Assembly: GCA_963667035.1 (NCBI GenBank)
Contig: OY762964.1
Location: 2,592,001 to 2,656,000 of the forward strand
Origin: Candidatus Cloacimonadales bacterium
GTDB taxonomy: Bacteria > Cloacimonadota > Cloacimonadia > Cloacimonadales > JAFGVF01
Direction: 5' to 3'
Length of the DNA: 64,000 nucleotides
Shown: piece after piece, positions 30,501 to 58,959 of the stretch
Layout of the letters: each line of letters opens with the position of its first letter
How positions within the stretch are numbered: position 1 is the stretch's first letter
Notes under the pieces: generated by a model
What the model was told of the DNA's origin: nothing
Databases searched by the model: none
What the model saw: only the letters and a program-made list of their open reading frames with translations
Made by a program: the position numbers and the translations under genes

Positions 30501-30511
30501 AATGTTACTCC

Positions 30512-31102: not shown

Positions 31103-31111
31103 AACTTCTCC

Positions 31112-32182: not shown

Positions 32183-32207
32183 ATTGCCTCTTTAATCTTA
32201 AATAATA

Positions 32208-34172: not shown

Positions 34173-34184
34173 GGTTACTTCCTT

Positions 34185-34838: not shown

Positions 34839-34847
34839 CTTATCCGC

Positions 34848-35267: not shown

Positions 35268-35280
35268 ATCTTTTCTTTAT

Positions 35281-40385: not shown

Positions 40386-41054
40386 TTACTTTATAGTTCT
40401 TCCAAATGCTCTTCCATGTGAAGATTGGAAATTACTATTACTATTTATCATTGTCCTGACTTCAGGAGCAGGCCATGTAGAAGCAGTAGTGACATTAACC
40501 ATAAAAGGCATAGCAATATCAGTATCAAATGAACCACTCCAACCAAACATACCAGTTACATATTGATTCCAAGATTGACTTGAAGCATTCCAACTAGAAA
40601 TAGATGTTGCACCGATTTCATCACCTACAGTGCTAGAGAGTAAAAGGTCAGATCTATCTAATGGAATCATAACCAGATTTGATCCAACTTCCAAATTGTA
40701 ATTTGGTTGAGTTATCATAGAACCTGCACAATAGAAAGTACCAGCAGCAGTAACATTCAGCATTATACCCATTCCATCGGCTAATGTAAATGAACCACTC
40801 CAACCAAACATACCGGTTACATATTGATTCCAAGATTGACTTGAAGCATCCCAATTAGAAATAGATGTTGCACCAATAGCATCACCAAGATCACTACTAG
40901 TTGCATATCCAGACTGCATTGGAAGTGCAATTAAATTACTACCCGCATACAAGTCGTATTTAACATAACCGACTGTTTCGCTGGGGTCTGATTCAACAGC
41001 AATGAGAAAAGTTACAGCTAATAACAATATTAGCGGTATTATTACTTTCTTCAT
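40386..41054 (-). CDS. Small secreted protein with two 87-aa internal repeats (GSNLIALP/GSNLVMIP) and a basic tail
   Basis: Signal peptide; AGGAGG RBS; IGATSISxWxASSQSWNQYVTGMFGWSGSF occurs twice. Confidence 0.8.
   Translation of the reverse strand: MKKVIIPLILLLAVTFLIAVESDPSETVGYVKYDLYAGSNLIALPMQSGYATSSDLGDAIGATSISNWDASSQSWNQYVTGMFGWSGSFTLADGMGIMLNVTAAGTFYCAGSMITQPNYNLEVGSNLVMIPLDRSDLLLSSTVGDEIGATSISSWNASSQSWNQYVTGMFGWSGSFDTDIAMPFMVNVTTASTWPAPEVRTMINSNSNFQSSHGRAFGRTIK
40527..40874. repeat. Intragenic direct repeat, 87 bp x2 (40527-40613 and 40788-40874)
   Basis: 84/87 identical by manual alignment; 261-bp spacing. Confidence 0.85.
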
Positions 41055-41120
41055 AATTCCTCCTAAAATTATTTAAGACCTTACCAAAAACATCCTTATT
41101 TTACACATTCCCACGTTCCC

Positions 41121-41149
41121 ATAATGTTGAGTAATCAAATGTATGTCAA
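41121..41149 (-). promoter_or_regulatory. Candidate sigma70 promoter
   Basis: TTGACA-N17-CATTAT on the minus strand upstream of the 41054 gene. Confidence 0.55.
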
Positions 41150-41559
41150 ATAGTTTTTCTTTTTTCCTCTATTTAATTGATATGTTAATATTATGCGAAC
41201 TTCCTTTAACCACTAAATTTCAATCAGTTACAGCTATTCCCACATTGCTTTTGATACTAATGCCTCATTCCCTTTATCATTTTCCACCAGTATGTTACAA
41301 GATTTTTACACTTTTTTGTATTTTCTTTGTTTTTCTAATTACATATCGGTTTTAAATTAGATTCGGTTATGTCCATATATGAATTATTACTAGCAACATA
41401 TTTCTAATCATTTCTGAAGGGTCTGTTGTTCGATCTTGTAAAAGTTTCTATAAAACTCTATCCATATCGCTCTTTTTTGATTCACTATTCATGTGTTTGA
41501 ACCTCCTTTTCATTGTCTATAATGTGCTTAATCGCATTGTGAGGTTTTCACACTTTTCT

Positions 41560-41751
41560 TTTTACTCCCCCAATCAATAATTTCTTCTTTTTGCTTCCAT
41601 TCTGGTATACTTCCAACTACCGATTTCTCGTAAGTTTTTCTCTCATTTCTCTCTCGTTTCTCTCCCGTTGCGAGCAACGGGAGACCAACGGGAGAGCAAC
41701 GGGAGACTAACCCGAGAGAAACCCCAGGTTGGTGGACGTGCAAAATGAGTG
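41560..41751 (-). repeat. Dispersed 11-bp-phased palindromic element, copy B (inverted)
   Basis: Reverse complement aligns with copy A over about 190 bp, including the tail ..aaaaagaagaaattattgat..gggagtaaaaa. Confidence 0.85.
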
Positions 41752-41933
41752 AATTAAGAGACAAAAATAGGAGAGAAATAGGAAGGAATAGGAAATTGAT
41801 AAAATGAATTTAGGACAGAATCCGTTGGGTGCATCCCAGTGTAACAATTCAGGTTAAAAGAAAACAGTTTCGAGATGCATCTTAACTCTTTATAGAGTGC
41901 TTGATTATGATACTTAGCTAAATAATCTAGATG

Positions 41934-42839
41934 CTAACTATTCTCATTTATCATCTTTAAGTATTGTCTACTTTCTTCAAGATGCGGATTAATCTTAATT
42001 GCTGTATTAAAGCAGCTCTCAGCTTCCCCTATTCTTCCAAGCTTAAAGAGGCATATTCCCTTTAGATTGAATGCTTTCGCCAAATCTCTGTCCCAACTGA
42101 AGCTTTGGAGCATAAATGTTTTATCATATTGCAACAAATCCTCTTCAGAAACTCCTTTATCCAATTGACTCTTAAGCACCGCCTGTGTTTCAGGCTTATC
42201 ATCTAATGTATAGTAGTCTCTTTTCAGCATACCCATATAGCGAGATACAAAATCCATTCTGTAATCAATACCTTCTGAAACAATAGTTAACGCTTTTTCA
42301 TAATTTTCGAGCTCCAAAAAGATGCTTGCAGCTCTAAAAGAAGCATAATCAGGCTCAGGGGAAACCTCTGAAGATTTAAGGTAAAATTCAGCTGTTTTCG
42401 ATTTGTCACCCATCTTTTTATATACTTCCGCTATGTTTAAATAATTCAGATGGGCTTGTTCAGGATACTTGTCAGCTAGTTTTGACAGTATATTCAAGGC
42501 TTTATTATAATGCCCAAGTTCTCTATGTGCCAAGGCAATATTGCCAATCGCATCTTTTATTTCAGGATCAATGCTTAGCACCTTGGCATAAAGATTTATA
42601 GCAGGAACAAACTTCCTATCTTTCAAGAGTAAATCAGCTTGTTCTTTTAGTGATAAAGCTTCTTCTTCCCTACCTTTAGATCCGACGTCTTTAAGCCACT
42701 GCGGTTGTAGCAAAGTAAGAATACCAAAGATTATAAGAACAACCCAAACACCAAAGATAGCCCCGGGAGTAATATAATCAAAAGCAAGCCTTTTTCTCTT
42801 ATCTCTCTTATTCGGTTGTATGGATGATAAAAAGAACAT
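41934..42839 (-). CDS. Membrane-anchored tetratricopeptide repeat protein
   Basis: N-terminal TM; TPR-like repeats (AINLYAKVLSIDP..DAIGNIALAHRELG; AFNLKGICLFKLGRIGEAESCFNTAIKINP). Confidence 0.8.
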   Translation of the reverse strand: MFFLSSIQPNKRDKRKRLAFDYITPGAIFGVWVVLIIFGILTLLQPQWLKDVGSKGREEEALSLKEQADLLLKDRKFVPAINLYAKVLSIDPEIKDAIGNIALAHRELGHYNKALNILSKLADKYPEQAHLNYLNIAEVYKKMGDKSKTAEFYLKSSEVSPEPDYASFRAASIFLELENYEKALTIVSEGIDYRMDFVSRYMGMLKRDYYTLDDKPETQAVLKSQLDKGVSEEDLLQYDKTFMLQSFSWDRDLAKAFNLKGICLFKLGRIGEAESCFNTAIKINPHLEESRQYLKMINENS

Positions 42840-44037
42840 TTTTCCCCTCTTTAGTTAGTCTATTAAACAATGCCACAGCTCTATCGTTTTTCAATCTGAA
42901 TACTTGTATTCCTGTCAGTGAATGCTCATTATAGACAAAATCCCACTCTTTGAAGTTCTCAATCACACCTCGAGCACCTTTACCATTAGCTCCGGCACCG
43001 AGAATCAAGATATCAGGTTTCATCTCAAAAATAGTGTTTAAATCTCTCGCATTGAACGATGATTTCTTATCAACCGGTCTGAATGTCCCATTAGGGAATA
43101 TCATGACATCGTAAAACGGTATAACGAAGCCTTTATAGATAGTAAGACCATTGGAAATATGAGTTATACCCTTATCTTTATTAAAAAAGAAGAATACACT
43201 CTGTCCGATTATCAAGGCTATTAACAGACCCAGGAAAAGTCTTTTGAAAAACTTGATTCTACTAAAATGGAAAACTATAAAGAATAGTACAAAACCTAGG
43301 ATAGTAAGCCCTATTATCCTCATCCAGTAAATCTTATCTGTGAATAAAGAGCTATTCAGAAGTAAGAAGAATACGAATACTGCCTGTAACAAAAGCATAC
43401 TAAGCGGGGAAGAAGAATAATCTTTCAGCTTCTCCTGCCTAAACTTCCAACCATTCTTAGCTATCTCTCCATGCTCAATCATAAAGAATACAAATGTGAG
43501 TCCAATGATTGCTCCCCACCCATCTTTTCCGATGTCTGATATGTCAAATATCCTACTTGAGATAAATACTTGAGCAAATTCATCAAATATAGAAGCACAT
43601 AAAGCCATTATGAAAGTCCATTTTATCACTTGGACATCAGTTGCTCCTCTCTCTCTGAACAATCTGAAAGCAATAAAAGCAAAAATCCCATAGGCAAAAT
43701 AGTGCCAATTGAACTGTAACTCATAGAAAGCATGATTAAAATAATAGTCTGATAGCTTCTGCCCTATACCAAATAGGATTATGATAACTCCCAACACTCC
43801 CCAACGCCACAAATCCATCTTCTTTCTAACGCTTATAAGCAGTGTAAGAAGGAGTATTACAGCTATTACAAGTACATTGGGTATAAAGTACTCTCCTACA
43901 TTGAATCCTGACCTTGATAAGTCACCTATGGCTCTTTGCAGATAGTTCTGTAGCATTAAAAAAGGTGTTAATACTAACAAGGCAATGTATAGCACCATTT
44001 GCCATAACTTAGAAAAAAATAAACTCTCTTTATTCAT
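42808..44037 (-). CDS. Multi-TM VanZ-like protein fused to a C-terminal Mth938/DUF498-like domain
   Basis: HYFAYG..SIFDEFAQVFISSRIFDISDI (VanZ); DVMIFPNG..KPDILILGAG..GIQV..AVALFNRL..GKNVLFIIHTT (Mth938-like). Confidence 0.7.
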   Translation of the reverse strand: MNKESLFFSKLWQMVLYIALLVLTPFLMLQNYLQRAIGDLSRSGFNVGEYFIPNVLVIAVILLLTLLISVRKKMDLWRWGVLGVIIILFGIGQKLSDYYFNHAFYELQFNWHYFAYGIFAFIAFRLFRERGATDVQVIKWTFIMALCASIFDEFAQVFISSRIFDISDIGKDGWGAIIGLTFVFFMIEHGEIAKNGWKFRQEKLKDYSSSPLSMLLLQAVFVFFLLLNSSLFTDKIYWMRIIGLTILGFVLFFIVFHFSRIKFFKRLFLGLLIALIIGQSVFFFFNKDKGITHISNGLTIYKGFVIPFYDVMIFPNGTFRPVDKKSSFNARDLNTIFEMKPDILILGAGANGKGARGVIENFKEWDFVYNEHSLTGIQVFRLKNDRAVALFNRLTKEGKNVLFIIHTTE

Positions 44038-44134
44038 CTGTTTCCCCTTGTGAAATAATCTGTTTAGCAGAATGTTTTAAGTCAAGAGATAAATTCGGAT
44101 ATTTATGAAGCATAAATAGTTAGTGTTTATTGCT

Positions 44135-44162
44135 AAAATGGCGACCGGTAGGTCGCCATTTT
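44135..44162 (-). terminator. Terminator after surface paralog 1
   Basis: AAAATGGCGACC-N4-GGTCGCCATTTT. A second hairpin TCCGGAACT..AGTTCCGGA lies at 44197-44227. Confidence 0.8.
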
Positions 44163-44236
44163 TGGTAGTTAGGGAGATCATTTATGAGAAAACATCTCCG
44201 GAACTGCCCCCTAACAGTAGTTCCGGATAATAATGA

Positions 44237-47200
44237 TTATTTCTTCTTATTAACTTTAAGCTCAGGTTTGTGTTCTTTATATTCTGCCCATCTTAAACTT
44301 CTCAGATTTGTTCTTTGACTTAGACTGAATACAGGAGCTGCAACACGTACAGGAGCTTCGTCAGTTGCTGTCACTTTTACGAAGTAATGATTACCGGGAA
44401 GTAAAGATGCATCCATAGTAGCTGAGTTTGTTGGCCATGAACTTAGATAAGTTAACTCATTAGCTTCAAATTCCGGTGTTTCTTCTACATATACTTTGTA
44501 AAGTGTAGCACCGGAAACAGCATCCCATGTTAGATTCATTAAACTACCGTCATATGATAATGAAATGTTTGCAGGTATATCTAGTGGTATTGGAGGTTCA
44601 ACCAAATCTTCTACTGAAGTAGCAAAAGCTATTGCCAGGTCATTTGATATAGGACCGCCTACACCGTTGTTTCTGTATTGGATACCAATTGTTCCGTCAG
44701 CATTCTCTATACCGATACAGGCATCGCCGGCAATTGATTCAACACCTGAATCACCGTTAGGATTTAAATAGTTCTGATATTGTATTTTTATCCTTCCGCT
44801 AGGATAAAGTATTACTTGAACATCAATGTATTCATTTAAATCACTGTAATCGTTGTACATCATTGCAGTATAAACAAAGTTGCCGGCTACATCATTTCCA
44901 TAGTATAGTACCGATGGTATATCTTCAGGATCTGAGTCCATGGATGCAAATGCTATTACATCATTAGGTCCGGAAGAATTAGGAATAACCAAATTCTCAT
45001 GATTTTGCCAGCCTGAGTCAACTGTGCCAAACTGAATTGTTCCGTTAGAACAGATAGACAACTCGGTATAATCATTACCAAAGTAATTGAAAGTAAATCC
45101 AATAGGAACATTCTGTGCAGAAGCATCATCTCCAAGTGAAATTACAGTACCGGTTTCACTGATATCTACCCACTCAAAGGTAGGTTGATAGCCTAAAGCA
45201 CTACCTTCATCAGTATTATTAGCAAAGTAGTAACCATCATAAAGTGTACCGTCTCCACCATAGTTAGGATTAGATAAAGTAGTGTAACTATAACTAGCTT
45301 CCGGTGCAGGGCCTTCACCATTCTGATTATAACCTGTTACATACCAGTAATATGTTGTATCATAATCAAGAGGAGATGTAAGAACCACACCTGTATAGTC
45401 GCCAACATCTGTTTGGATAAATTCTTCATTATCCAAGCTTACGTACAAGTAATAACCTGAAGCCCAACTGTCAGCATTCCACTGGAATGTAGTGTATTCA
45501 CTTATACCGGTAGCAAGATTTTCCGGTGTAGTCAAAACAATCTCTTCAGGAGTGTTTGCATAAGTAGTAAAACTCCATACAGGACATTCAGTTGCATTAC
45601 CATTTGCATTGTAAGGGATTACTTGCCAATAATGTGTAACGCCACCGGCCAAATCAGTAACATCATAGGTTAAATCTGTGCCATTATCATTCATGCTAAG
45701 AATATTTGTTGGTGGATTATCTGTACCGAAATTCAAATAGTACCCATCAGCGAAGTTAGCAGAATTCCACTCAATAGTTAATGCAAATTCTTGATCAATA
45801 GCCCCGTCAGCAGGTGATACTGCTGTTGTAGCTGCAGGAGGTGTAGCTACTGTTGTAAAGCTCCATACAGAAGCTCCACTGGCATCACCGTTAGCATTGT
45901 AAGGTACTACTTGCCAATAATATGTAACGCCACCGACTAAACCACTATAATTATAAGTAGTTGCATCATCTTGGTTAACCCCATTTAGAATATTTGTTGG
46001 TGGATTGTCTGAACCAAAATACAATTTATAGCCGTCGGCATACAAAACACTATTCCATTCAAGTGTTCCTACTGCAAGCTGATCAACAGCCTCATCGGCA
46101 GGTGATACGAGTGTAGTAACTGCTGGAGGTGTAGTGTTATCAAAAATGTAGATGTCATCTATTGCGATATCTCCAAGATAGCTGGTTGATTCCATACCTC
46201 TAAAGTCTAAAGATACGGTTTGTCCTGCATATTCCGAAAGATTCACCAAACCCATCATCCATTCAGATTGTCCTTCAGGAGATGCAATAGTTACTACGGA
46301 TTCATCAGTTGTTTCACCATTAATAACATCTATATGCAATTCAGTAGTATTAGCATTCTTTCCAATCCAATAGTAGAAAGTAAAAACCGGATTTGTCAAA
46401 CTACTCAAATTGAAAGTAGGTGTATATAGATGAGCAGGAATTACGTTAGGATCTGAATCATCAAGGAACATCATATATCCGCTATTACCTGTATGCTCAG
46501 AAGATGCTGTATAATCATAAGACGTACCTTGATAAGTTTGCCAACCATTATTGCTTGAATCAGGATTACCTACCCATTCAAGTGGAAATTCAGCAGTGTC
46601 AAAAGACTGTGTATAAGGGAAAGCTGCAATAATGGGATCAAATCCTTCACCTTGTACCGGAATATTATGAGTTTCTCTCGTAACATTGTCAACAATCACA
46701 ATATTGTCGCTGACAATTCCTTCAGAAACAGGTTGGAAAGTAACTTCAAATGAAGCAGATTGAGTCGGTGCAAGAGTTAATGGATATGAATTACTATCAT
46801 TTATCGAGAAGTAAGTTCCTGTTGCCATTGCAATCGGATTATTAATTACCAAGTCTGCTCCACCATTATTAGTAATAGTAAACATTTGAGCATCACTTTG
46901 TATATTGATGTAACTCATTCCAAAATCTTTGGATTCTGGATTTATTGAGAACTCAGGTATTTCAGGAATATCACCGAACAGTATTCTAATATTCGGAATC
47001 GAAGTTCTAAGATAGGATGCAGTCGGAGGACCTGTTGGATCTGGATTAGTTGAATCACTTCTATAAATTAGAGAACGACTTTCCTCAACTGTTGTACAGA
47101 AGAATTCATCTGAATTAGTTTCGCAATTTGTTTGATTTTCATCAATGGCAATAACTAAATTATCAGTATTATTATAATTGAAAGGCATATCCAAATTTAA

Positions 47201-48268
47201 CTCAATCCAACAATCTTCTGTTGGATAAGGGTCTAGGGTCACAGAAGCAACTTGCATCAAGTTATCGACTGAAATCCAATCAGTTGTTGAGGCAAACTCT
47301 GTTAAATTGGTATGTCCCATATAGATAACCCACTGAGTTGAATGTTCAAGATCACTATAACCATTGTAATGATACCAAATTTTCTCTATTCTTCTGCTCT
47401 CGACATTTACCTCACTTTGAAGATAGATGCTTTGAGAATATGAATAGCCATAATATGGCTCGATGGGGAGACCTTCGCCTACAACACTTCCATTACCAAT
47501 AGCAATAACATCTGGACCCAAAGGAGTAGAGAATGAATAAACAGGAGATTCAGCTTGTAGTCTTACTACAGTATTCTTTGAAATCACTTTCCAGTAATAT
47601 GTTGTTGTATAAGCTAGTCTTCCCGGAGAATAGTTACCAGCTTCTCCGGCAGTAGCATTATCTATAACCAAATTAGTTGGTGGATTATCTGTACCAAAAT
47701 ATAAGTCATAAGTCTCAGTATTAGCACCAAAAGTCCATGATATTGAAGTGTTTGTTGGCAAATCAAGAGCACCATCTGCAGGTGAAATATTTGAGATTAC
47801 TTCAGGTGTACTAGGGTCTTCGATTACAGCACTCATATCGATTTGATAAGCACCTTCAGAATCATCCCATCCTTCCACAACTATGTAATAATCAGTATTA
47901 GCATCAAGGGCTAAATCTAATAATGAAGAAGTATTATTAGGAAGACTAGAGCCATCCGGGTAATATCCATCATCATTAGACCAAAGCTGAGTAGTTTGAT
48001 CTGCAGCATAAACACGCAAGTATGTGTCAAAACTTGAATTATCAAGTAATATATCAAGATCAAGAATTGCGAATGGTGAATTAATCACATAGAATGCATC
48101 TGCACTAGCATTATCAATAGTATTTGTTAATGTAGTTGTATCCCCAGTGTCGGTATAGGGAAAGTCAGTATTTGTAATCGGGACAGCAGTAGCAAAAGTA
48201 TCTCCCCCAATAGCAAACAATCCTAAAACCAAAACAAATAACATAAGGGTCAATATACTTTTTTTCAT
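44237..48268 (-). CDS. Large secreted surface protein, tandem paralog 1 (PPC-like, FN3/SusE-like repeats, ASH-Ig, MAM-like, terminal FN3 and basic tail)
   Basis: Signal peptide; modules shared with 5537..10999; no PNPF C-terminal domain. Confidence 0.85.
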   Translation of the reverse strand: MKKSILTLMLFVLVLGLFAIGGDTFATAVPITNTDFPYTDTGDTTTLTNTIDNASADAFYVINSPFAILDLDILLDNSSFDTYLRVYAADQTTQLWSNDDGYYPDGSSLPNNTSSLLDLALDANTDYYIVVEGWDDSEGAYQIDMSAVIEDPSTPEVISNISPADGALDLPTNTSISWTFGANTETYDLYFGTDNPPTNLVIDNATAGEAGNYSPGRLAYTTTYYWKVISKNTVVRLQAESPVYSFSTPLGPDVIAIGNGSVVGEGLPIEPYYGYSYSQSIYLQSEVNVESRRIEKIWYHYNGYSDLEHSTQWVIYMGHTNLTEFASTTDWISVDNLMQVASVTLDPYPTEDCWIELNLDMPFNYNNTDNLVIAIDENQTNCETNSDEFFCTTVEESRSLIYRSDSTNPDPTGPPTASYLRTSIPNIRILFGDIPEIPEFSINPESKDFGMSYINIQSDAQMFTITNNGGADLVINNPIAMATGTYFSINDSNSYPLTLAPTQSASFEVTFQPVSEGIVSDNIVIVDNVTRETHNIPVQGEGFDPIIAAFPYTQSFDTAEFPLEWVGNPDSSNNGWQTYQGTSYDYTASSEHTGNSGYMMFLDDSDPNVIPAHLYTPTFNLSSLTNPVFTFYYWIGKNANTTELHIDVINGETTDESVVTIASPEGQSEWMMGLVNLSEYAGQTVSLDFRGMESTSYLGDIAIDDIYIFDNTTPPAVTTLVSPADEAVDQLAVGTLEWNSVLYADGYKLYFGSDNPPTNILNGVNQDDATTYNYSGLVGGVTYYWQVVPYNANGDASGASVWSFTTVATPPAATTAVSPADGAIDQEFALTIEWNSANFADGYYLNFGTDNPPTNILSMNDNGTDLTYDVTDLAGGVTHYWQVIPYNANGNATECPVWSFTTYANTPEEIVLTTPENLATGISEYTTFQWNADSWASGYYLYVSLDNEEFIQTDVGDYTGVVLTSPLDYDTTYYWYVTGYNQNGEGPAPEASYSYTTLSNPNYGGDGTLYDGYYFANNTDEGSALGYQPTFEWVDISETGTVISLGDDASAQNVPIGFTFNYFGNDYTELSICSNGTIQFGTVDSGWQNHENLVIPNSSGPNDVIAFASMDSDPEDIPSVLYYGNDVAGNFVYTAMMYNDYSDLNEYIDVQVILYPSGRIKIQYQNYLNPNGDSGVESIAGDACIGIENADGTIGIQYRNNGVGGPISNDLAIAFATSVEDLVEPPIPLDIPANISLSYDGSLMNLTWDAVSGATLYKVYVEETPEFEANELTYLSSWPTNSATMDASLLPGNHYFVKVTATDEAPVRVAAPVFSLSQRTNLRSLRWAEYKEHKPELKVNKKK

Positions 48269-48414
48269 AATTGGATAACTCCATATATATTGTTGTTTAG
48301 TATTAATTTGTTTGAAAAGCTATTTATGAATACAAAACTCTCGTTTCGTATTCTGAATAGAATTCGAATATTCTCCTTGTTGTCCTGGTGCATTTCCTTT
48401 TACACCACCCCTTT

Positions 48415-48496
48415 AGATAATCCTTTCATTGTTTCTTAGAGCTTTGTGGTTATGTGGATGTGTTTTGGTGTGTTCAGCTCTTCAAAACAACTATCT
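48415..48496 (-). ncRNA. Putative structured leader element (stem enclosing a C/A-rich loop), copy 1
   Basis: AGAUAGU..UUGUUUU-GA-AGAGCU [..CCAAAACACAUCCACAUAACCACAA] AGCUCU-AA-GAAACAA..AUUAUCU. Confidence 0.45.
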
Positions 48497-48772
48497 CAGA
48501 TCATTTTTTGTTTCCGGTATTTTATTTCTTCCGGTACGAAATTTCCTTCTTTTTACTGTACTTCAGCCACATTTGTCCTACCTCCTGTGGACCAAAATAC
48601 ATTGATACAACGCAAATTTGGTTTAATATCAATTTCCTTGTCAAGAGTTTTTTGAATTCACTAATTGCTAAAAAGATTATTTTGATTCTGTAAAATGCTT
48701 AGATTATTGAGTAGATTTAAATTATGAATTTGTTTCAATAAGTGTTTTTATTATTGTTTCTTTACCATTAAC

Positions 48773-48803
48773 AAAAAAAGACGACTCCTTACGAAGTCGT
48801 CTT
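48773..48803 (-). terminator. Terminator after paralog 2
   Basis: AAGACGACT..AGTCGTCTT followed by a T run on the minus strand. Confidence 0.8.
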
Positions 48804-48824
48804 GATTTTCTGATAGATTTATGT

Positions 48825-51800
48825 TTATTTAACTATCTTTTTACCCAATTCCGGTTTAGGCTCAATGTATTCTATCCATCTTAAGTTTCTGAGATTTACT
48901 CTTTGACTAATACTGAATACAGGAGCTGCAACACGTACAGGAGCTTCGTCAGTTGCTGTCACTTTTACGAAGTAATGATTACCGGGAAGTAAAGATGCAT
49001 CCATAGTAGCTGAGTTTGTTGGCCATGAACTTAGATAAGTTAACTCATTAGCTTCAAATTCCGGTGTTTCTTCTACATATACTTTGTAAAGTGTAGCACC
49101 GGAAACAGCATCCCATGTTAGATTCATTAAACTACCGTCATATGATAATGAAATGTTTGCAGGTATATCTAGTGGTGTTGGAGGTTCAACTAATTCTTCT
49201 ACTGAAGTAGCAAAAGCTATTGCCAAGTCATTTGATATAGGACCACCTACACCGTTGTTTCTGTATTGGATACCAATTGTTCCGTCAGCATTCTCTATAC
49301 CGATACAGGCATCGCCGGCAATTGATACAACACCTGAATCACCGTTAGGATTTAAATAGTTCTGATATTGTATTTTTATCCTTCCGCTAGGATAAAGTAT
49401 TACTTGAACATCAATGTATTCATTTAAATCACCGTAATCATTGTACATCATTGCAGTATAAACAAAGTTGCCGGCTGCATCATTTCCATAGTATAGTACC
49501 GATGGTATATCTTCAGGATTTGAGTCCATGGATGCAAATGCTATTACATCATTAGGTACGGAAGAATTAGGAATAGCTAAATTCTCATGATTTTGCCAGT
49601 TTGTGTCAACTGTACCAAACTGAATTGTTCCGTTAGAACAGATAGACAACTCGGTATAATCATTACCAAAGTAATTGAAAGTAAATCCAATAGGAACATT
49701 CTGTGCAGAAGCATCATCTCCAAGTGAAATTACAGTACCGGTTTCACTGATATCTACCCACTCAAAGGTAGGTTGATAACCTAAAGCACTACCATTAACA
49801 GTACTATTGGCAAAGTAGTAACCATCATAAAGTGTACCGTCTCCACCAAAGTTAGGATTTGCCAGAGTTGTGAAGCTATATGTTGCAACAGGTGCAGGTC
49901 CTTCACCATTACTATTATAGCCGGTTACATACCAATAATATGTTGTGTTATAATCAAGAGGTGATGTAAGAATCACACCTGTATAATTACCAACATCTGT
50001 TTGGATAAAGTCTTCATTATCCAAACTTACATACAAATAATAACCGGTAGCCCAACTGTCTGCATCCCACTGGAATGTAGTGTATTCACTTATACCTGTA
50101 GCAAGATTTTCCGGTGCAGTCATAACAATCTCTTCAGGAGTACTTCCATACGTAGTAAAACTCCATACAGGGCAATCAGTTGCATTACCGTTTACATTGT
50201 AAGGAATTACTTGCCAATAATATGTTATCCCGCCAGCTAAATCACTATAATTATAAGTAGTTGCGTCATCTTGATCAACTCCATCTAGAATATTTGTTGG
50301 AGGATTATCTGAACCAAAACTCAAATAATAACCATCAGCAAAAGGCACACTATTCCATTCAAGGGTTCCTGCTGAAAGCTGATCAACAGATTCATCGGCA
50401 GGTGATACTAGTGTAGTAACTGCTGGAGGTATAGTGTTATCAAAAATGTAGATGTCATCTATTGTGATATCTCCATAGAAACTTGTTGATTCCATAGCTC
50501 TAAAGTCTAAAGATACGGTTTGTCCCGCATATTCCGTGAGATTCACAAAACCCATCATCCATTCAGATTGTCCTTCAGGAGATGCAAAAGTTGCTACGGA
50601 TTCATCAGTTGTTTCACCATTCACAACATCTATATGCAATTCAGTAGTATTAGCATTCTTTCCAATCCAATAGTAGAAAGTAAGAACCGGATTTGTCAAA
50701 CTACTGAAATTGAAAGTAGGTGTATATAGATGAGCAGGAATTACGTTAGGATCTGAATCATCAAGGAACATCATATATCCGCTATTACCTGTATGCTCAG
50801 AAGATGCTGCATAATCATAAGACAAACCTTGATAAGTTTGCCAACCATTATTGTTTGAATCAGGATTTCCTACCCATTCAAGTGGAAACTCAGCAGTGTC
50901 AAAAGACTGTGTATAAGGAAAATCTGCAATAATGGGATCAAATCCTTCACCTTGTACCGGAATATTATGAGTTTCTCTCGTAACATTGTCAACAATCACA
51001 ATATTGTCGCTGACAATTCCTTCAGAAACAGGTTGGAAAATAACTTCAAATGAAGCAGATTGAGTCGGTGCAAGAGTTAATGGATATGAATTACTATCAT
51101 TTATCGAGAAGTAAGTTCCGGTTTCCATTGCAACCTGATTGTTAATAACCAAGTCTGCTCCACCATTATTAATAATAGTAAAAGAGTGAGCATCACTTAG
51201 ACTATTAATATAGGTCATACCGAAATCATAAGAGTCAGGATTTATTGAGAACTCAGGTAGTTCAGGAACATCACCAAACTGAATCCTAATATTTGGGATA
51301 GAAGTTCTCAGATAAGATGCAGTCGGAGGTTCTGTTGGATCAGGATTGTTTGAATCACTTCTATACATAATTGAACGACTTTCCTCAACTGTTGTGCAGA
51401 AGAATTCATCTGTACTTGACTCACAACCTGTTTGATTCTCTTCAACAGCAATAACTAAGTTATCAGTATTGTTATAACTGAAAGGTGAATCCAAGTTAAA
51501 CTCAATCCAACCATCATCTGTTGGATAAGGATCTAGTGCCACTGAAGCGACTTGCGTCAAGTTATCGATTGGAATCCAGTCTGATGTAGAGGCAAACTCT
51601 GTTAAATTGGTATGACCCATATAGATAACCCACTGAGTTGAATGTTCAAGATCAGTAGAGCCATTGTAGTGATACCAAATTTTCTCTATTCTTCTGCTCT
51701 CGACATTTACCTCACTTTGAAGATAGATACTCTGAGAATATGAATAGTAATAAAATGGTTCGATGGGGAGACCTTGGTCTACAACACTACCATTACCAAT

Positions 51801-52916
51801 AGCAATAACATCGCTACCAAGATTTGTAGTAAAATTGAATAAACTCTCTGTTCCAATAGAGCTAATCTCATTTTTAGCAACTACTTTCCAATAATATGTT
51901 GTAGCATTAGAAAGTCTACCCGGTATATAAGTTCCACTTGCACCGGCTATTCCATCAGTTATAACTTGAGCAACTGGAGGATTAACTGTATCAAAATATA
52001 AATCATATGTTTCAGTATTTACACCAAAATCCCAAGTTAAAGTTGTTCCAATACTTACATTCATTGCATTATCATCAGGGCTTGGTGATGTTGCTAATCC
52101 GGGTGTTAAATCAATAGTTGTGAAACTATAAACCTGGTTGTTTGTATCTTCACTAACTGAATTCTTAGAAACAACCTTCCAATAATAGGTAGTATTATCT
52201 AACAAATTACTACTAGGTGTATAAGAACCAACTGAAGCTGTACCATCAGTCACAACCTGAACAACAGGTGGATTAACTGTATCAAAATATAAATCATATG
52301 TTTCAGTATTTGCCCCAAAATCCCAAGTTATACTTGTTGTAATTGGTTGATTTATTGAGTCATCTAACGGACTTACATTTGATATTAATTGAGGAGATAA
52401 TGCGTCTATATATATCTCCGGTCCTACGATTTCATCAAGAAGTGTTGGATAACCATAATCATCGATTGCTCTAAATCGAATGTATGCATTGTTTGTTTGT
52501 GCATAGGTTTCAAGATTGTAAGTATGCGACTCATATTCTTCTGCATTTAGTAAGTGATCAATTTCTATCCAAGTCTCTGTACCATCAGTAGAAATCTCAA
52601 TGTATAATTCATTCTGATCTTCAGACCAATCAGCTGCTTTATACCAGAAACTCAATTCATCTGTTTCACTAGCTGTTAAGTCTAATCTAGGGGTTATCAA
52701 AACACCTTCTGAGCCACGATTAGATGTGCCATTGAATCCAGCAGCATGATAACCGGTATAAAAATTAGTGCTTTGTACCCAAGCATGACCTGAAATTATT
52801 GTATTTTCCCAATCTTGTGGAGGGAATCCGTTTTCAAACCCTTCGTTTAATTGCACAGCAAAGATTGAAGTTGCAATCAGAAAAAGAATGGAAACAATTA
52901 ATGTTAATCTTTTCAT
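48825..52916 (-). CDS. Large secreted surface protein, tandem paralog 2 (cleaved-adhesin-like N-terminus, FN3/SusE-like repeats, ASH-Ig, MAM-like, terminal FN3 and basic tail)
   Basis: EGFENGFPPQDW..LITPRLDL; middle and C-terminal blocks near-identical to paralog 1; N-terminus resembles paralog 3. Confidence 0.85.
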   Translation of the reverse strand: MKRLTLIVSILFLIATSIFAVQLNEGFENGFPPQDWENTIISGHAWVQSTNFYTGYHAAGFNGTSNRGSEGVLITPRLDLTASETDELSFWYKAADWSEDQNELYIEISTDGTETWIEIDHLLNAEEYESHTYNLETYAQTNNAYIRFRAIDDYGYPTLLDEIVGPEIYIDALSPQLISNVSPLDDSINQPITTSITWDFGANTETYDLYFDTVNPPVVQVVTDGTASVGSYTPSSNLLDNTTYYWKVVSKNSVSEDTNNQVYSFTTIDLTPGLATSPSPDDNAMNVSIGTTLTWDFGVNTETYDLYFDTVNPPVAQVITDGIAGASGTYIPGRLSNATTYYWKVVAKNEISSIGTESLFNFTTNLGSDVIAIGNGSVVDQGLPIEPFYYYSYSQSIYLQSEVNVESRRIEKIWYHYNGSTDLEHSTQWVIYMGHTNLTEFASTSDWIPIDNLTQVASVALDPYPTDDGWIEFNLDSPFSYNNTDNLVIAVEENQTGCESSTDEFFCTTVEESRSIMYRSDSNNPDPTEPPTASYLRTSIPNIRIQFGDVPELPEFSINPDSYDFGMTYINSLSDAHSFTIINNGGADLVINNQVAMETGTYFSINDSNSYPLTLAPTQSASFEVIFQPVSEGIVSDNIVIVDNVTRETHNIPVQGEGFDPIIADFPYTQSFDTAEFPLEWVGNPDSNNNGWQTYQGLSYDYAASSEHTGNSGYMMFLDDSDPNVIPAHLYTPTFNFSSLTNPVLTFYYWIGKNANTTELHIDVVNGETTDESVATFASPEGQSEWMMGFVNLTEYAGQTVSLDFRAMESTSFYGDITIDDIYIFDNTIPPAVTTLVSPADESVDQLSAGTLEWNSVPFADGYYLSFGSDNPPTNILDGVDQDDATTYNYSDLAGGITYYWQVIPYNVNGNATDCPVWSFTTYGSTPEEIVMTAPENLATGISEYTTFQWDADSWATGYYLYVSLDNEDFIQTDVGNYTGVILTSPLDYNTTYYWYVTGYNSNGEGPAPVATYSFTTLANPNFGGDGTLYDGYYFANSTVNGSALGYQPTFEWVDISETGTVISLGDDASAQNVPIGFTFNYFGNDYTELSICSNGTIQFGTVDTNWQNHENLAIPNSSVPNDVIAFASMDSNPEDIPSVLYYGNDAAGNFVYTAMMYNDYGDLNEYIDVQVILYPSGRIKIQYQNYLNPNGDSGVVSIAGDACIGIENADGTIGIQYRNNGVGGPISNDLAIAFATSVEELVEPPTPLDIPANISLSYDGSLMNLTWDAVSGATLYKVYVEETPEFEANELTYLSSWPTNSATMDASLLPGNHYFVKVTATDEAPVRVAAPVFSISQRVNLRNLRWIEYIEPKPELGKKIVK

Positions 52917-53051
52917 TTGTGAATAACTCCATAATTAATAATAATTAAAGAAGTTGAAATAAATAGTTGAACGCTTCTCCGTACTACACCTTTATCTCAT
53001 ATCTCCTTGTAACTGCGGTACATCAATAAAGATATACCAATCTTGCAATTT

Positions 53052-53126
53052 ATCTGAAGGTGTCGGTGAATCTTGTGGGTTGTGGATGTGTTTGGATTAT
53101 TTTTCCCCCTGACAACCTAAACAGAT
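53052..53126 (-). ncRNA. Putative structured leader element, copy 2
   Basis: AUCUG..AGGUUGUC..GGAA [..CCAAACACAUCCACAACCCACAAGA] UUCACC-GACACCU..CAGAU. Confidence 0.45.
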
Positions 53127-53310
53127 CTTATTCAATGGGAAACATAATTTTATAAATTTGTGCATCTCCTACCATGTTAATACACAAAATATATCTCCCA
53201 TACTAAATAGAGTTTTGATTATCCTATAAAATAATGTCAAGACATTTTTTTCTTTATCTATTATTAAAGCAATATGAATGTGTAATATACTCTTGCAAAT
53301 GAGTATGCAC

Positions 53311-53342
53311 AAAAAAAAGACGACCCCTTGCGAAGCCGTCTT
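53311..53342 (-). terminator. Terminator after paralog 3 (homologous to 48773-48803)
   Basis: AAGACGGC..GTCGTCTT followed by a T run on the minus strand. Confidence 0.75.
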
Positions 53343-53365
53343 AGTTGTAGGTTTATCTTTTTTTC

Positions 53366-56300
53366 TTATTTTTCTTTTTTCAGATTCTCTTCAAGCTTTG
53401 GTTCTTTATATTCCATCCAGCTTAGATTTCTGAGATTTGTTTTTTGACTTAATCTAGAAGAAGGTGCTCCTATGGGAGCAGGAACTTCTTCATCTGTTGC
53501 GGTAACTTTTACGAAATAGTGACTACCAGTAAATAAAGATACATCCATAGATGCAGAATTTGTAGACCATGAACTTAAATAAGTTAACTCATTAGCCTCA
53601 AATTCAGGTGTTTCTTCTGCATACACTTTGTAAAGAGTAGCACCTGATACTGCATCCCATGTTAGGTTCATAACACTACCGTCATAAGAAATAGAAACAT
53701 TTTCCGGAGTTGTTATAAGTCCGGCAGGTTCTGCAAGTCCTTCGAGACTACTAGAATAGGCAATTGCCATATTCTCTAACATCGGTCCACCTTCGCCATT
53801 GTTTCTATATTGTATACCAACTGTTCCATCTGCATTCTCGATACCTATACATGCATCTCCTGGTATTGAAAGACTTCCGGTATCATCGTAAAGATTCACA
53901 TAGTTCCTATATTGAACCTTGATTCTACCGTTAGGGTAAAGAATAACCTGCATATCCATGTATTCATCATAATCATCGTAATCATTCCACATTTCTACAG
54001 TGTAAACAAAATTGCCATTGGCGTCATTCCCATAATAGCAATTTGATGGAATATCAGTTGTATGCATATCCATTGCAGAAATCGCAATTACATCATTTGG
54101 AGTAGATGCATTAGGAATTGTCATATTAGATCCTGTCGAGGTAGCAGGATTAGAGAACATTACATATCCATTTGTTCCAAGGTAAATCTGAGTATAGTCA
54201 TTACCAAAGTAATTGAACGTAAATCCTATATCAACTGTAGCATAACCATCATCAGCACTTGTATATGATGGAGAAGTACCTGTTTCACTTATATCAACCC
54301 AACCAAAAGAAGGTTGATATCCTAATCCATTTCCACCGGCAGTACTATTAGCGAAATAGTAACCACCATACAATACTCCATCACCACCGTAATTTGGATC
54401 TGATTGAGTTGTGAAACTAAATGTGTTAGTCGGAGCAGGGCTTTCACCATTAGGATTATAACCTGTTACATACCAGTAGTAAGTTGTTTCATAATCTAAA
54501 GGAGAAGTCAACGTAACACCGGTAATATCACCAACATCAGTCTGGGTAAAATTCTCGTTATCCAAACTTACATACAGATAATAGCCATCAGCCCAGCTAT
54601 CACTGTTCCACCTAAATGTTGTATATCCATCTACATTGGTTGCTGCATCAGTAGGTGTAGTCATTGTGATTTCTTCCGGAGCATTGCCATAAGTTGTGAA
54701 ACTCCATACCGGGCATTCATTAGTATTACCATTTGCATTATAAGGAACTACTTGCCAATAATATGTAGTACCACCATTTAAGTTAGTAGCATTATAGGTT
54801 AAGTTAATACCATTATCTTGCATATTAAGAATATTAGTAGGTGGATTATCAGTACCTAAATTCAAATAGTAACCGTCTGCAAATGCAACTGTATCCCATT
54901 CAAGTGTTATTTCAAACGGTTGTTCAATAGCTGCATCAGAAGGAGAAACCAGTGTTGATGTTGCTGGAGGATTGGTATTATCAAATACGTGAACATCATC
55001 CAAACAAATATCACTATTGTAATCGGATCCGGTTATTGCTCTAAAACGTACTCTAACCTCATCTCCATAACCGCTTAACAAGAAACTATGCAAGAACCAT
55101 CCTGTGCCTTGATTACCAGAAATAGCAGGAGCTACATCTTCATTCCAAGCAGTTCCATCCCATATATCAAAATGTAACTCACCCATTGTACTACCATACA
55201 TGTTATAATAGAATGAGAATGTAGGATTAGTTAATGATTCAATATTGAAAACAGGTGTAAGTAAATCAAATCTCTCATTTGGATGACTTGTAGCTTCTGT
55301 AAAGATAAACAAGCCATCTCCGGAAGTATGGTCACCAGATGTCGGGCCTGTCGATGAAGAAGGTGTTGAATCACTGATAGTCCAGTCACTATCATCTTCT
55401 GTACCTTGTTCCCATGGAACTGTAAGTTCTCCGCCATTTTCAAAATCTTCGTCATAAGGATATGAAGAAATTACCGGATCAAAACCTTCTCCTTGAACAG
55501 GAATACTGTGCGTTAATCTAGTGATATTATCAACAATCACAATATTATCATTGAAAACTCCTACAGAACTAGGACTAAATGTCACTTCAAATGTTACATT
55601 ATCAGTAGGAGCTATTGTGATAGGGTAACTATTATTATCGGTAACATTGAAGTTTGCTCCGTTTTCCATAGCTATCGGATCATTAATAATTAAATCCGCT
55701 CCACCATTATTAGAAATTGTAAATGTTGGTGCATCGCTAGAAGTGTTAATGTAAGTAATTCCAAAATCATAAGAATCCGGATTTATGAAGAACTCAGGTT
55801 GCTCCGGAAGTTCTCCGAATTTCATTCTAATGTTTGGAATATAATTATATATCCCGGCAGCTACCGGAGGAGCTACAGGATCAGGATTTGTGTTATCATT
55901 CCTATACATTATTGAGCGACTTCCTGTAACTGAAGAACAATAAAACTCATCACTACTTGTTTCATAACCGGATTGATTATCTTCAACTGCAATAACTAAG
56001 TTATCAACATTGTTATAAACAAACGGTGTATCTAATGCAAACTCAATCCAGCCCTCTTCAGTAGGATACGGATCTAAAGTTACAGAAGCAACTTGCAATA
56101 AGTTATCAATTGATATCCAATCAGTATTAGTAGCAAACTCAGTCAAGCTTGTGTGACCCATATAGATTACCCACTCACTGGTGTTGTCAAGATCACTAGA
56201 GCCATTATAATAGTACCAAATCTTTTCTATTCTCTGGTTTGCAAAATCAATTTCACTTTGCAGATAGATACTTTGTGAGTATGAATATCCAAAGAATGGA

Positions 56301-57457
56301 TCAACAGGGAGACCTTTATCAGTGATAGTACCAGTTCCAATGCCAACCATATCAGGACTCAATGCTGTTGTAAAGCTGAATGAATTCTCAGTTGTTCTAA
56401 CAGTATTTGAATTCTTGGAAACAACTTTCCAGTAATATGTAGTATCATAAGCGAGTCTACCCGGATTATAGTTTCCAGTGCCACTACAGATTCCATCTGT
56501 AACAACTTGATTAACCGGAGGATAAACTGTATCATAATATAGATCATATGATTCCGCATTTTCTCCGAAACTCCATGAAATTGAGGTGCCTATGCTTTCA
56601 CTAAGTGCACCATCTTCAGGACTAAGTCCGAATATATCTGCAGGTAACCAATCTTTTGTTGTAAAACTATATACTGGATTAATAGTATCATCTCTAACAG
56701 AATTCTTACAAACAACCTTCCAGTAGTATGTCGTGTCGTCATTTATAATACCACTTGGAGTGTAAGCTCCAATAGAAGCAACACCATCTGTTACAACTTG
56801 AATCAATGGAGGATTCACCGTATCTAAATACAAATCATAAGTTTCTGTGTTTACTCCAAAGTCCCAAGTTATTGTCGGTGTAACGGATTGATTAGCTGAT
56901 TCGTTTTCCGGACTTATGTTTTCAATGTATCCTGGAGCTAATGGATCGATATAGATTTCAGAAGCTACAACATCATCAAGAAGTGTTGGATAACCATAAT
57001 CATCAATTGCTCTAAATCTAATATATGTGGTGTTTGTTTGTGTATAAGTTTCTAGATTGTAAGTGTGTGATTCGAAATCTTCTGCATTTAATAAATGGGC
57101 GATTTCTATCCAATTCTCTGCACCATCAGTGGAAATCTCTACATAAAGTTCATTCTGATCACTGGACCATATTGGCGCTTTATACCAGAAACTCAGTTCA
57201 TCTGCTTCACTTACAGTTAAATCTAATCTCGGTGTTAAAAGGACGCCTTCAGAGCCACGATTAATTGTACCCATGAATTGGGCTGAATAGGAACCGGTAT
57301 TAGCACTAGTTCCTTGAATCCATGCATGACCCGTGACTATATTGTTCTCCCAATCCCGAGGAGGGAAATCGTTTTCGAATCCTTCTGTTAACTGCAAAGC
57401 AAAGATTGAAGTTGCAATAAGAAAAAGAATGAAAACAGTTAATGTTAATCTTTTCAT
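53366..57457 (-). CDS. Large secreted surface protein, tandem paralog 3 (contains a clear MAM domain)
   Basis: DDSDW..TPSSSTGPTSGDHTSGDG.FIFTEA..FSFYYNMYGSTMG.L..GNQG..W..DICLDDV; same terminal FN3 and basic tail. Confidence 0.85.
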   Translation of the reverse strand: MKRLTLTVFILFLIATSIFALQLTEGFENDFPPRDWENNIVTGHAWIQGTSANTGSYSAQFMGTINRGSEGVLLTPRLDLTVSEADELSFWYKAPIWSSDQNELYVEISTDGAENWIEIAHLLNAEDFESHTYNLETYTQTNTTYIRFRAIDDYGYPTLLDDVVASEIYIDPLAPGYIENISPENESANQSVTPTITWDFGVNTETYDLYLDTVNPPLIQVVTDGVASIGAYTPSGIINDDTTYYWKVVCKNSVRDDTINPVYSFTTKDWLPADIFGLSPEDGALSESIGTSISWSFGENAESYDLYYDTVYPPVNQVVTDGICSGTGNYNPGRLAYDTTYYWKVVSKNSNTVRTTENSFSFTTALSPDMVGIGTGTITDKGLPVDPFFGYSYSQSIYLQSEIDFANQRIEKIWYYYNGSSDLDNTSEWVIYMGHTSLTEFATNTDWISIDNLLQVASVTLDPYPTEEGWIEFALDTPFVYNNVDNLVIAVEDNQSGYETSSDEFYCSSVTGSRSIMYRNDNTNPDPVAPPVAAGIYNYIPNIRMKFGELPEQPEFFINPDSYDFGITYINTSSDAPTFTISNNGGADLIINDPIAMENGANFNVTDNNSYPITIAPTDNVTFEVTFSPSSVGVFNDNIVIVDNITRLTHSIPVQGEGFDPVISSYPYDEDFENGGELTVPWEQGTEDDSDWTISDSTPSSSTGPTSGDHTSGDGLFIFTEATSHPNERFDLLTPVFNIESLTNPTFSFYYNMYGSTMGELHFDIWDGTAWNEDVAPAISGNQGTGWFLHSFLLSGYGDEVRVRFRAITGSDYNSDICLDDVHVFDNTNPPATSTLVSPSDAAIEQPFEITLEWDTVAFADGYYLNLGTDNPPTNILNMQDNGINLTYNATNLNGGTTYYWQVVPYNANGNTNECPVWSFTTYGNAPEEITMTTPTDAATNVDGYTTFRWNSDSWADGYYLYVSLDNENFTQTDVGDITGVTLTSPLDYETTYYWYVTGYNPNGESPAPTNTFSFTTQSDPNYGGDGVLYGGYYFANSTAGGNGLGYQPSFGWVDISETGTSPSYTSADDGYATVDIGFTFNYFGNDYTQIYLGTNGYVMFSNPATSTGSNMTIPNASTPNDVIAISAMDMHTTDIPSNCYYGNDANGNFVYTVEMWNDYDDYDEYMDMQVILYPNGRIKVQYRNYVNLYDDTGSLSIPGDACIGIENADGTVGIQYRNNGEGGPMLENMAIAYSSSLEGLAEPAGLITTPENVSISYDGSVMNLTWDAVSGATLYKVYAEETPEFEANELTYLSSWSTNSASMDVSLFTGSHYFVKVTATDEEVPAPIGAPSSRLSQKTNLRNLSWMEYKEPKLEENLKKEK

Positions 57458-58958: not shown

Positions 58959-58959
58959 T

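Follow-up and report, generated by a model that had tools for sequence, protein, structure and literature searches.

How three large secreted proteins that carry no recognised sorting signal might be held at the bacterial surface, and what completes the truncated fibronectin type III (FN3) domain in which each of them ends, are the questions raised by a gene cluster of Candidatus Cloacimonadales bacterium (contig OY762964.1, positions 2,592,001 to 2,656,000 of the forward strand, G000:C1:2592001-2656000; this whole stretch of 64,000 nucleotides, with a G+C content of 36%, is referred to as the window, and the genome is a single contig of 3.1 Mb). In anaerobic digesters, where Cloacimonadota are abundant, surface enzymes and adhesins are important for breaking down polymers. 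The cluster contains the three paralogous genes of the large proteins P0002, P0003, and P0004 and the gene of a small secreted protein, P0001, and all genes of the donor and acceptor system described below lie on the minus strand. The original prediction suggested that P0001 donates its N-terminal β-strand to the incomplete FN3 domain of the paralogs. Such strand complementation between P0001 and the three paralogs is found here to be probable, being supported by computation from fused homologs, gene co-location, and a model of the complex.

Large proteins ending in an FN3 domain that stops after strand F

The putative acceptors, their terminal parts, and the relative used for comparison are located in the window as follows.

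44237..48268, minus strand: P0002, acceptor ("socket"), 1343 amino acids (aa)
48825..52916, minus strand: P0003, acceptor, 1363 aa
53366..57457, minus strand: P0004, acceptor, 1363 aa
44360..44584, minus strand: terminal FN3 of P0002, strands A-F only, residues 1229-1303 (Pfam, alignment, and fold)
48948-49172, minus strand: terminal FN3 A-F of P0003 (alignment with fused forms)
53492-53713, minus strand: terminal FN3 A-F of P0004 (alignment with fused forms)
44240..44359, minus strand: tail of P0002, residues 1304-1343, with a Pro/Arg linker, the W-x-EY-x-E-[PH]-K motif, and a basic end
48828-48947, minus strand: tail of P0003 (alignment)
53369-53491, minus strand: tail of P0004 (alignment)
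5537..10999, plus strand: P0005, relative of 1820 aa with complete FN3, choice-of-anchor J, and a type IX secretion system (T9SS) sorting domain

The three paralogs are built of a signal-peptide-like N-terminus, MAM, Ig-like/choice-of-anchor D, and FN3-like repeats. As had been noticed from the sequence, their last FN3 domain stops after the F strand, the C-termini reading "..NLTWDAVSGATLYKVY..HYFVKVTATD" followed by a Pro/Arg-rich basic tail of 40-41 residues. In P0002 the Pfam fn3 profile (PF00041) matches residues 1234-1303 at profile positions 5-70 of 84 with 21.7 bits, short of the required 25 bits. For the terminal domain of P0003 and P0004 Pfam gave no fn3 match at E<=0.01, and a match over the full 84 positions was found in none of the three.

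The PNPF C-terminal domain is absent from all three paralogs and present in P0005 according to both Pfam and NCBIfam, in agreement with the original prediction. In P0001-P0004 no match to Por_Secre_tail or FlgD_ig (Pfam) or to the NCBIfam type A sorting domain was found, and a remnant of such a domain 3' of the paralogs was sought and rejected, as no open reading frame (ORF) of at least 25 aa in the gaps resembles one. The sorting domain of P0005 is located at residues 1737-1817 (Pfam) and assigned to T9SS type A by NCBIfam, and its complete FN3 goes on as "YEYKITALYSAPAGESEACDSVMV", just as described earlier; this is the ordinary, unsplit ending for such large proteins.

The truncated end is not a peculiarity of the cluster. 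In the genome of the window 12 ORFs with a C-terminal FN3 lacking strand G (called G-less below) were counted, three of them in the window; the other nine, of 158-2506 aa, end 0-47 residues past the FN3 F strand, carry no T9SS tail, and are located at genome coordinates 102614-106180, 638072-641320, 799854-800330, 805304-809563, 1001592-1004330, 2367911-2372008, 2688218-2695738, 2758812-2762201, and 2998674-3005036.

A small secreted protein that begins with an orphan G strand

The candidate donor gene is divided as follows.

40386..41054, minus strand: P0001, donor ("plug") gene, 222 aa, with signal peptide, orphan FN3 G strand, two-repeat domain, and basic tail
40998..41054, minus strand: predicted Sec signal peptide, residues 1-19 (MKK, hydrophobic stretch, LIA; from sequence, with helix 5-18 in the model)
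40956..40997, minus strand: donor strand, residues 20-33 (VESDPSETVGYVKY), homolog of the end of the FN3 FG loop and of the G strand
40467..40970, minus strand: two-repeat domain, residues 29-196, two repeats of about 90 aa with GxNLIxLP .. W .. W motifs

The N-terminus of P0001 reads MKKVIIPLILLLAVTFLIA|VESDPSETVGYVKY, where the bar marks a putative cleavage site placed by the -3/-1 rule and the conservation of Ala19 (94%) rather than by a signal-peptide predictor; the signal peptide ends LIA|VES and contains no cysteine, that is, no lipobox. Residues 20-31 map to 40997-40962 and the C-terminal tail is basic ("..HGRAFGRTIK"), both as first read from the DNA, and the donor strand (residues 20-33) runs into the first strand of the two-repeat domain.

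P0001 homologs are present in single copy in this genome, where only one ORF, P0001 itself, among five regular-expression matches has the G-strand motif straight after a signal peptide. A search of 1.84 billion representatives returned 438 relatives at E<=0.001, and a homolog was found in 27 of 41 related genomes, mostly one per genome. The family is recognised by a signal peptide, A-x-ES-x-PS-x-VVGY, two GxNLIxLP..W..W repeats, "WP", and a short basic tail, all of which are present in P0001.

The strand is the best conserved part of the protein. In an alignment of 48 stand-alone homologs the mean frequency of the top residue is 0.79 for residues 19-33, compared with 0.45 in the domain (34-196) and 0.22 in the tail; A19, S22, S25, V28, and G29 are each at least 94% conserved, and 5 of the 12 columns conserved at 90% or more fall within residues 19-29. 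The AlphaFold2 (AF2) monomer model built from this 48-row alignment reached a predicted local distance difference test score (pLDDT) of 91.9 and a predicted template modelling score (pTM) of 0.79, with residues 19-28 free of secondary structure (pLDDT 74 for the block 21-30) and the fold beginning at strand 29-35. Burial of the donor peptide in its own domain, which the prediction had named as an observation that would speak against it, was not seen, residues 20-28 being unburied in the model.

The two-repeat domain has no family and no meaningful match in Pfam and NCBIfam, and a Foldseek comparison of the model with the PDB gave nothing at E<=0.001. An RCK_C-like fold was considered and rejected, as the best Z of 4.7 over 68 aligned residues (VIA-align wide) is within the noise range of the tool. 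The nearest 30 Atlas neighbours have no family of Pfam in common, and "hypothetical protein" is the name of each of the three listed. Judged from the model, the fold appears to be one without a clear solved relative.

Single-chain relatives and the origin of the strand

The identity of the strand is established by relatives in which nothing is split. Among the 150 homologs listed of the 438, most are stand-alone proteins of about 200-240 aa, and in many others the two-repeat domain lies within proteins of 340-2000 aa. In these longer homologs the match begins at about residue 17-21 of P0001, directly after an FN3 F strand and FG loop, with the consensus "..YFYxVTAxxG-xESxPSxxVGY.." ahead of the two-repeat domain; examples are "..SRMFYRVIAVSG|IVESVPSEVVGYVKY" (with the F strand shown, "..MFYRVIAVSG-IVESVPSEVVGYVKY", aligned to residues 17-33 of P0001) and "..TNYFYAVTATGTG|GESDPSNRVGVFHY". 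Because the fused relatives have the F strand just before the aligned stretch, the mature N-terminus of P0001 is an FN3 G-strand homolog whose strands A-F are absent from its own chain, and the resemblance proposed earlier is therefore beyond chance. The single chains with FN3 A-G leading straight into a GxNLIxLP two-repeat domain, which had been named as something to look for, thus exist. Aligned jointly with the fused forms, the paralogs of the window, like 16 giant proteins of relatives, end where those forms continue "xESxPSxxV".

Por_Secre_tail was detected at the C-terminus of 10 of 24 longer relatives scanned, and three of these ten (P0025, P0028, and P0035) consist of signal peptide, ESAPS.., two-repeat domain, a further region designated X, and the T9SS tail. 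From these comparisons a single-chain architecture can be assembled in the order cargo, FN3, two-repeat domain, X, T9SS tail, and the sequences suggest that in Cloacimonadota it is cut into three genes, namely, acceptor, donor, and X..T9SS tail. The first cut is inside the FN3, between strands F and G, and the second is in a linker.

Since fused and split forms coexist and some donors are distant from any acceptor, the split may also be considered as a relic of gene fission without any interaction, where the donor keeps the G-strand residues for folding or signal processing and the truncated FN3 is a tolerated remnant. This explanation is very improbable: a useless N-terminal 10-mer is not expected to be the best conserved part of a family with about 35% overall identity, the 10-mer is placed outside the folded domain in the model, and the G-less end recurs in giant intact ORFs of many genomes.

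Gene order across related genomes

Co-occurrence of donor and acceptor across genomes was among the checks attached to the prediction. In the first sample, consisting of 20 kb upstream of the donor (less at contig ends) in 20 genomes, 13 of 20 stretches contained an ORF of 500-2860 aa that ends 5-42 residues past the FN3 F strand, a count that is partly circular and loses weight for that reason, as the hidden Markov model (HMM) used for counting was built partly from the same sample. In five cases, among them those of G036, G025, G013, and G031, only 68-140 bp separate acceptor and donor.

The second sample was collected from species genomes by the peptide pattern ES[DEA]PS[EDA]VVGY, derived from a 14-row alignment, and comprised 37 loci, of which 35 were labelled Cloacimonadota, Cloacimonetes, Cloacimonas, or Cloacimonadales and two "uncultured bacterium". 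A same-strand upstream G-less ORF was present in 15 of the 19 loci having the full 10 kb upstream, or in 13 of 17 when the two genomes used in the HMM are removed, and in two additional loci with shorter flanks. One more locus (L033) was rejected as an acceptor locus and left uncounted, its match being a complete small FN3 downstream of the donor. For comparison, 12 ends per 3.1 Mb in the genome of the window mean by arithmetic that a random 10-kb stretch holds one about 4% of the time, and the co-location across genomes is strong.

Structure models of donor and acceptor

The complex was modelled from the last 115 residues of P0002 (20-row alignment) and residues 20-222 of P0001 (48-row alignment). 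The interface score ipSAE was 0.89 in all three runs and 0.01, 0.00, and 0.00 in the controls; among solved complexes 116 of 157 attain the mark applied to this score, and among mismatched pairs 2 of 215 do so. Because the FN3 fold is very well known and F-G pairing is abundant in solved structures, the pass indicates likeness to a whole FN3 and not binding, which counts as a reservation. The runs share at least 68% of contacts, with partner pLDDT of at least 87. The interface joins residues 20-33 of the donor to residues 64-76 (GNHYFVKVTATDE, strand F) and 1-11 (strand A) of the acceptor; the donor residues run antiparallel to strand F, acceptor residue 72 facing 22-25, 68 facing 27-29, and 66 facing 29-32. 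They occupy the G-strand position, the outcome that the prediction had called supportive; portions of the two-repeat domain also contact the FN3, and the acceptor's own tail is left outside the interface, its strand being displaced.

The probable course of events is the following. A naturally split FN3 domain would serve as a non-covalent joint between two chains. The three large paralogs would be exported by Sec, and their FN3 end with strands A-F would leave a groove open beside strand F. P0001 would be exported separately, and cleavage of its signal peptide would free the first ten or so residues (VESDPSETVG), which would take the place of the missing G strand, lying antiparallel to strand F. 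The two-repeat domain would then pack on the rebuilt FN3, and the complex would mimic a single chain of cargo, complete FN3, and two-repeat domain. With one donor for 12 acceptors in this genome, P0001 would be a shared adaptor, and the earlier claim of such a role fits these numbers.

Another explanation is given by the monomer model of the acceptor. The AF2 model computed for the C-terminal 120 residues of P0002 from an alignment of 4 rows (pLDDT 67.1) has six confident strands and is assigned to FN3 by Foldseek with a probability of 1.00 and 5 solved chains at E<=0.001, and in it a seventh strand is formed by the protein's own tail (residues 100-108, RSLRWAEYK). Accordingly the paralog FN3 might be complete in cis, with a long FG insertion and the tail L-R-W-x-E-Y as seventh strand, and P0001 would be functionally unrelated. 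The Foldseek alignments to FN3 chains (about 106-108 columns) do include this strand, and W-x-EY-x-E is kept in all genus-level relatives; both the strand and the conservation of the motif within the genus weigh against strand donation. Against completion in cis, the seventh strand reaches a pLDDT of about 56 and three of the five models failed (near 30), the tail does not have the sequence of a canonical G strand and is displaced by P0001 when the complex is modelled, and completion in cis would offer no reason for the conservation of the orphan G strand in P0001.

The three paralog tails share (L/Y)R..(R/S/G)(W/F)xEYxE(P/H)xP and a lysine-rich end, the position [PH] of the motif being His in P0002 and Pro in P0003, P0004, and P0006. 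Among the genera searched, the full tail is confined to one, with three cases in the genome of the window, two in G001, two in G003, a partial one in G002, and a further one in P0006, a protein from a metagenome. In other genera the tails of orthologous ends comprise 2-8 residues, and in genus g2 (G004, G009, G006, and G008) the chain ends 7-8 residues past strand F ("..MKFFKIEASTDAFTPAK"), which does not suffice for an own G strand. Completion of the domain by its own tail, named with the prediction as evidence that would contradict it, is thus weakly suggested for the paralogs by the monomer and opposed by the complex and by the short ends of the other genus; as an account of the system it is improbable. 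On the reading that P0001 donates the strand, the paralog tail may cover the open groove of the FN3 before the donor binds, or it may have another role.

Genomes with G-less ends and no recognised donor

Besides the reservations already attached to the first-sample count, the complex model, and the paralog tail, several observations speak against strand donation by P0001. No acceptor was found in the stretch examined at 6 of the 20 first-sample donor loci, nor upstream at 4 of the 19 second-sample loci, and in the window the donor is separated from the paralogs by two unrelated genes and a gap of 880 bp.

The main reason why confidence in strand complementation is not higher is the existence of genomes with G-less ends and no donor. 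The 14 genomes without a P0001 homolog (sought at E<=1e-5) were searched with the acceptor profile and their loci were read. Seven of them (G017, G020, G022, G027, G030, G033, and G038) have internal or complete FN3 domains only. The other seven have ORFs that end 1-29 residues past strand F, namely, G018 (about 17 loci), G034 (7 of 7 read), G039 (7 of 7), G021 (7 of 7 read, from 43 matches), G035 (4 of 4), G016 (3 of 5), and G023 (1 of 3). Those with many G-less ends belong to families f6, f8, f11, and f12, and a two-repeat protein was detected in none of G018, G034, G039, and G021 at E<=1 with the A2 profile.

A substitute donor was looked for in several ways. In G018 the pattern A-x-E-S-x-P-S gave 2 matches, neither at an ORF start, and E-S-x-P-S-x-x-V gave 48, of which 30 loci were read and none had a signal peptide followed by a donor-like G strand: those in FN3 context were internal G strands of complete FN3 domains, one followed a signal peptide without resembling a donor, and the others lay in short non-genic frames. 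No donor-like ORF was seen in the acceptor-locus flanks read (1.5 kb) in the donor-less genomes. The X-domain profile found there only small proteins of 163-177 aa made of a signal peptide and X, with no G strand or T9SS tail.

L173 1432-1923 and L174 1423-1956, minus strand: small X-only proteins of family f8 (G018 and G034), found by the X-domain profile

Either another donor exists in these genomes, or the G-less end works with a different partner. The latter leads to an alternative in which the G-less FN3 end acts as a C-terminal signal for sorting or docking that some other protein recognises, for example an outer-membrane or secretion component providing a strand by β-augmentation, and P0001 is only one of several possible strand donors or pairs only with the product of the neighbouring gene and does not serve all 12 proteins. 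It agrees with the many G-less ends in genomes of f6, f8, f11, and f12 that have no P0001-family protein, with the flanks free of a donor-like ORF, and with the ratio of 12 acceptors to one donor in the genome of the window. It is nevertheless rather unlikely, since the G-strand motif of the donor is strongly constrained, the donor lies next to acceptors far above chance expectation, the complex model passes with controls near zero, and an alternative donor was identified in no genome.

The downstream protein and the type IX secretion system

The gene that follows the donor may connect the proposed joint with the T9SS.

38759..40375, minus strand: P0157, putative third component, 538 aa, starting 10 nt after the donor gene (Pfam and NCBIfam)
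40028-40306, minus strand: N-terminal "X" domain of P0157, about residues 24-116 (profile comparison)
38768-39001, minus strand: T9SS type A sorting domain of P0157, residues 459-536 (Pfam, NCBIfam)

P0157 is composed, in this order, of a signal peptide, the X domain, FN3-like domains, and the T9SS type A sorting domain. The arrangement is widespread: of 30 donor loci for which sequence downstream was available, 29 have a gene on the same strand whose start lies -20 to +163 bp past the donor, a PNPF motif lies within the last 95 residues of 27 of the donor-downstream genes (30 loci), and Por_Secre_tail was above the Pfam cut-off in all ten donor-downstream proteins sampled, including one (L056) missed by the regular expression, so that a T9SS-tailed gene directly downstream of the donor is present at 28 of the 30 loci. 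An hhalign comparison of the N-terminal 190 residues of 30 downstream proteins with the region C-terminal to the two-repeat domain in 30 fused relatives gave 95.1% probability, E 3.2e-8, and 85 columns. In BLASTP the similarity between P0157 and fused relatives was weak, local, and limited to the X region (E 0.004 and 0.024, single comparisons), and the homology of this region is visible only by profile comparison.

In single chains the two-repeat domain is often followed by X and the T9SS tail, and here the next gene carries X and a T9SS tail; by this parallel the adaptor would tie the tail-less giants to a T9SS-secreted surface base. The T9SS itself is present in the genome, with the sortase PorU (615.5 bits, cut-off 420) and 129 Por_Secre_tail matches. 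A role of P0001 as adaptor to a T9SS-anchored base protein is proposed only tentatively, since binding of the donor to the downstream protein is suggested by gene order and homology to fused forms, and the cut between donor and T9SS protein lies in a linker and not within a domain, so these points too belong on the opposing side. Speculatively, the whole could form a three-part plug-in display, in which the adaptor docks a dozen tail-less giants, through its two-repeat domain, on one T9SS base that provides the signal in trans for a set of interchangeable adhesin-like cargos, with the W-x-EY tail as a temporary self-cap, a picture that is possible and somewhat doubtful.

Comparison with known systems

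The subunits of chaperone-usher pili (Pap/Fim, Caf1) have an Ig-like sandwich from which the G strand is missing, and the N-terminal extension of another secreted protein fills the groove, which gives a very stable non-covalent joint. Both features, an acceptor of Ig-like fold without strand G and a donor N-terminal extension, are found here, as an analogy of mechanism and not a sequence homology. No outer-membrane usher (PF00577) was matched in the genome at E<=0.001, an E. coli control being positive and PapD-like chaperones not having been searched for; the predicted joint is a 1:1 one between a giant multidomain protein and a small adaptor rather than a polymer of like subunits; the fold is FN3, with the donor antiparallel to F as in ordinary FN3, and has no sequence relation to pilins.

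Strand complementation of secreted subunits is also used by the type V pili (FimA/Mfa) of Bacteroidota, which belong to the wider Fibrobacteres-Chlorobi-Bacteroidetes (FCB) group and are organisms that also have the T9SS. Type V pilins are made as lipoprotein precursors, with a cysteine-bearing signal and a propeptide, mature by proteolysis, and donate strands from the C-terminus, whereas P0001 has no lipobox cysteine, would donate its N-terminus, and would form no polymer. The T9SS type A sorting domain (TIGR04183 / PF18962), present in P0005 and P0157, is the alternative ending of similar large surface proteins; unlike T9SS cargo, the paralogs and the donor have no sorting domain, and any T9SS dependence would be in trans via P0157.

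Donor-strand complementation and exchange in chaperone-usher systems are described in a bioRxiv preprint (PMC13278184), which reports for the "Pam" pili of the candidate phyla radiation (CPR) an FnIII-containing PamR, whose extra N-terminal strand is predicted to enter a truncated Ig-like domain of another protein and to tether it. Pam is the nearest published case found; its acceptor is the pilin of a filament built by donor-strand exchange, the chaperones are membrane-anchored, and the organism is a monoderm, whereas here the FN3 itself is split, the acceptors are giant adhesin-like proteins, and the organism is a diderm with a T9SS context. Piggyback or hitchhiker transport, where a signal-less protein is localised by binding to a signal-bearing partner, is covered for peroxisomes and Tat, and not for T9SS, in the accessible portion of one article (PMC9251779); the present system is similar in this principle and would differ in coupling through a rebuilt domain instead of an enzyme complex interface.

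In a full-text literature search, with subscription journals outside its coverage, neither a split FN3 nor this plug and socket system was found described. The mechanism would be donor-strand complementation as in pili, by analogy, and for the joining of surface proteins by a rebuilt FN3 no published description was found. Strand complementation is known as the glue of pili, and here it would be a general connector of unrelated, separately exported surface proteins that arises when an ordinary FN3 is cut between strands F and G. If the binding is true, it would account for the holding or export of large Cloacimonadota surface proteins without a known sorting signal, open a possible trans-acting route to the T9SS, and offer a natural, genetically encoded pair of a 10-residue tag and a catcher of about 75 residues. 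Two uncharacterised domain families, the two-repeat and the X domain, are also named and given a testable role.

Other genes of the window

The interval between paralogs and donor consists of two parts. At 41934-44037 lie the genes of a TPR protein, whose N-terminus carries a membrane segment, and of a membrane protein of the VanZ/DUF498 type, a pair that occurs in matching position in G001 and G003 and not in other genera; at 41055-41933, between the TPR gene and the donor gene, the largest ORF of the 880-bp interval is at most 78 aa.

At 37273-37947 a secreted 224-aa protein has a complete FN3-like C-terminal domain ("..YYWSVEPYNENGTSVIAKTFIIQVK") with its own G strand. It is a false positive for the criterion of a short distance to the C-terminus and has a homolog at the matching place in L033. 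A minus-strand gene run at 21870-36336 has termini that by eye resemble parts of type II secretion or type IV pilus systems (PilB, PilC, PilT, PilM-like, and pseudopilin-like N-termini), a connection with the donor and acceptor system being conceivable.

Upstream of the paralogs, three genes are located at 57919-59876, namely, that of a secreted LTXXQ-motif protein (Pfam) and two ORFs that resemble, as judged by eye, an anti-sigma factor and an extracytoplasmic function (ECF) sigma factor. The same gene set is found upstream of the paralogs in G001 (L013), and it may be a regulator of the paralog cluster.

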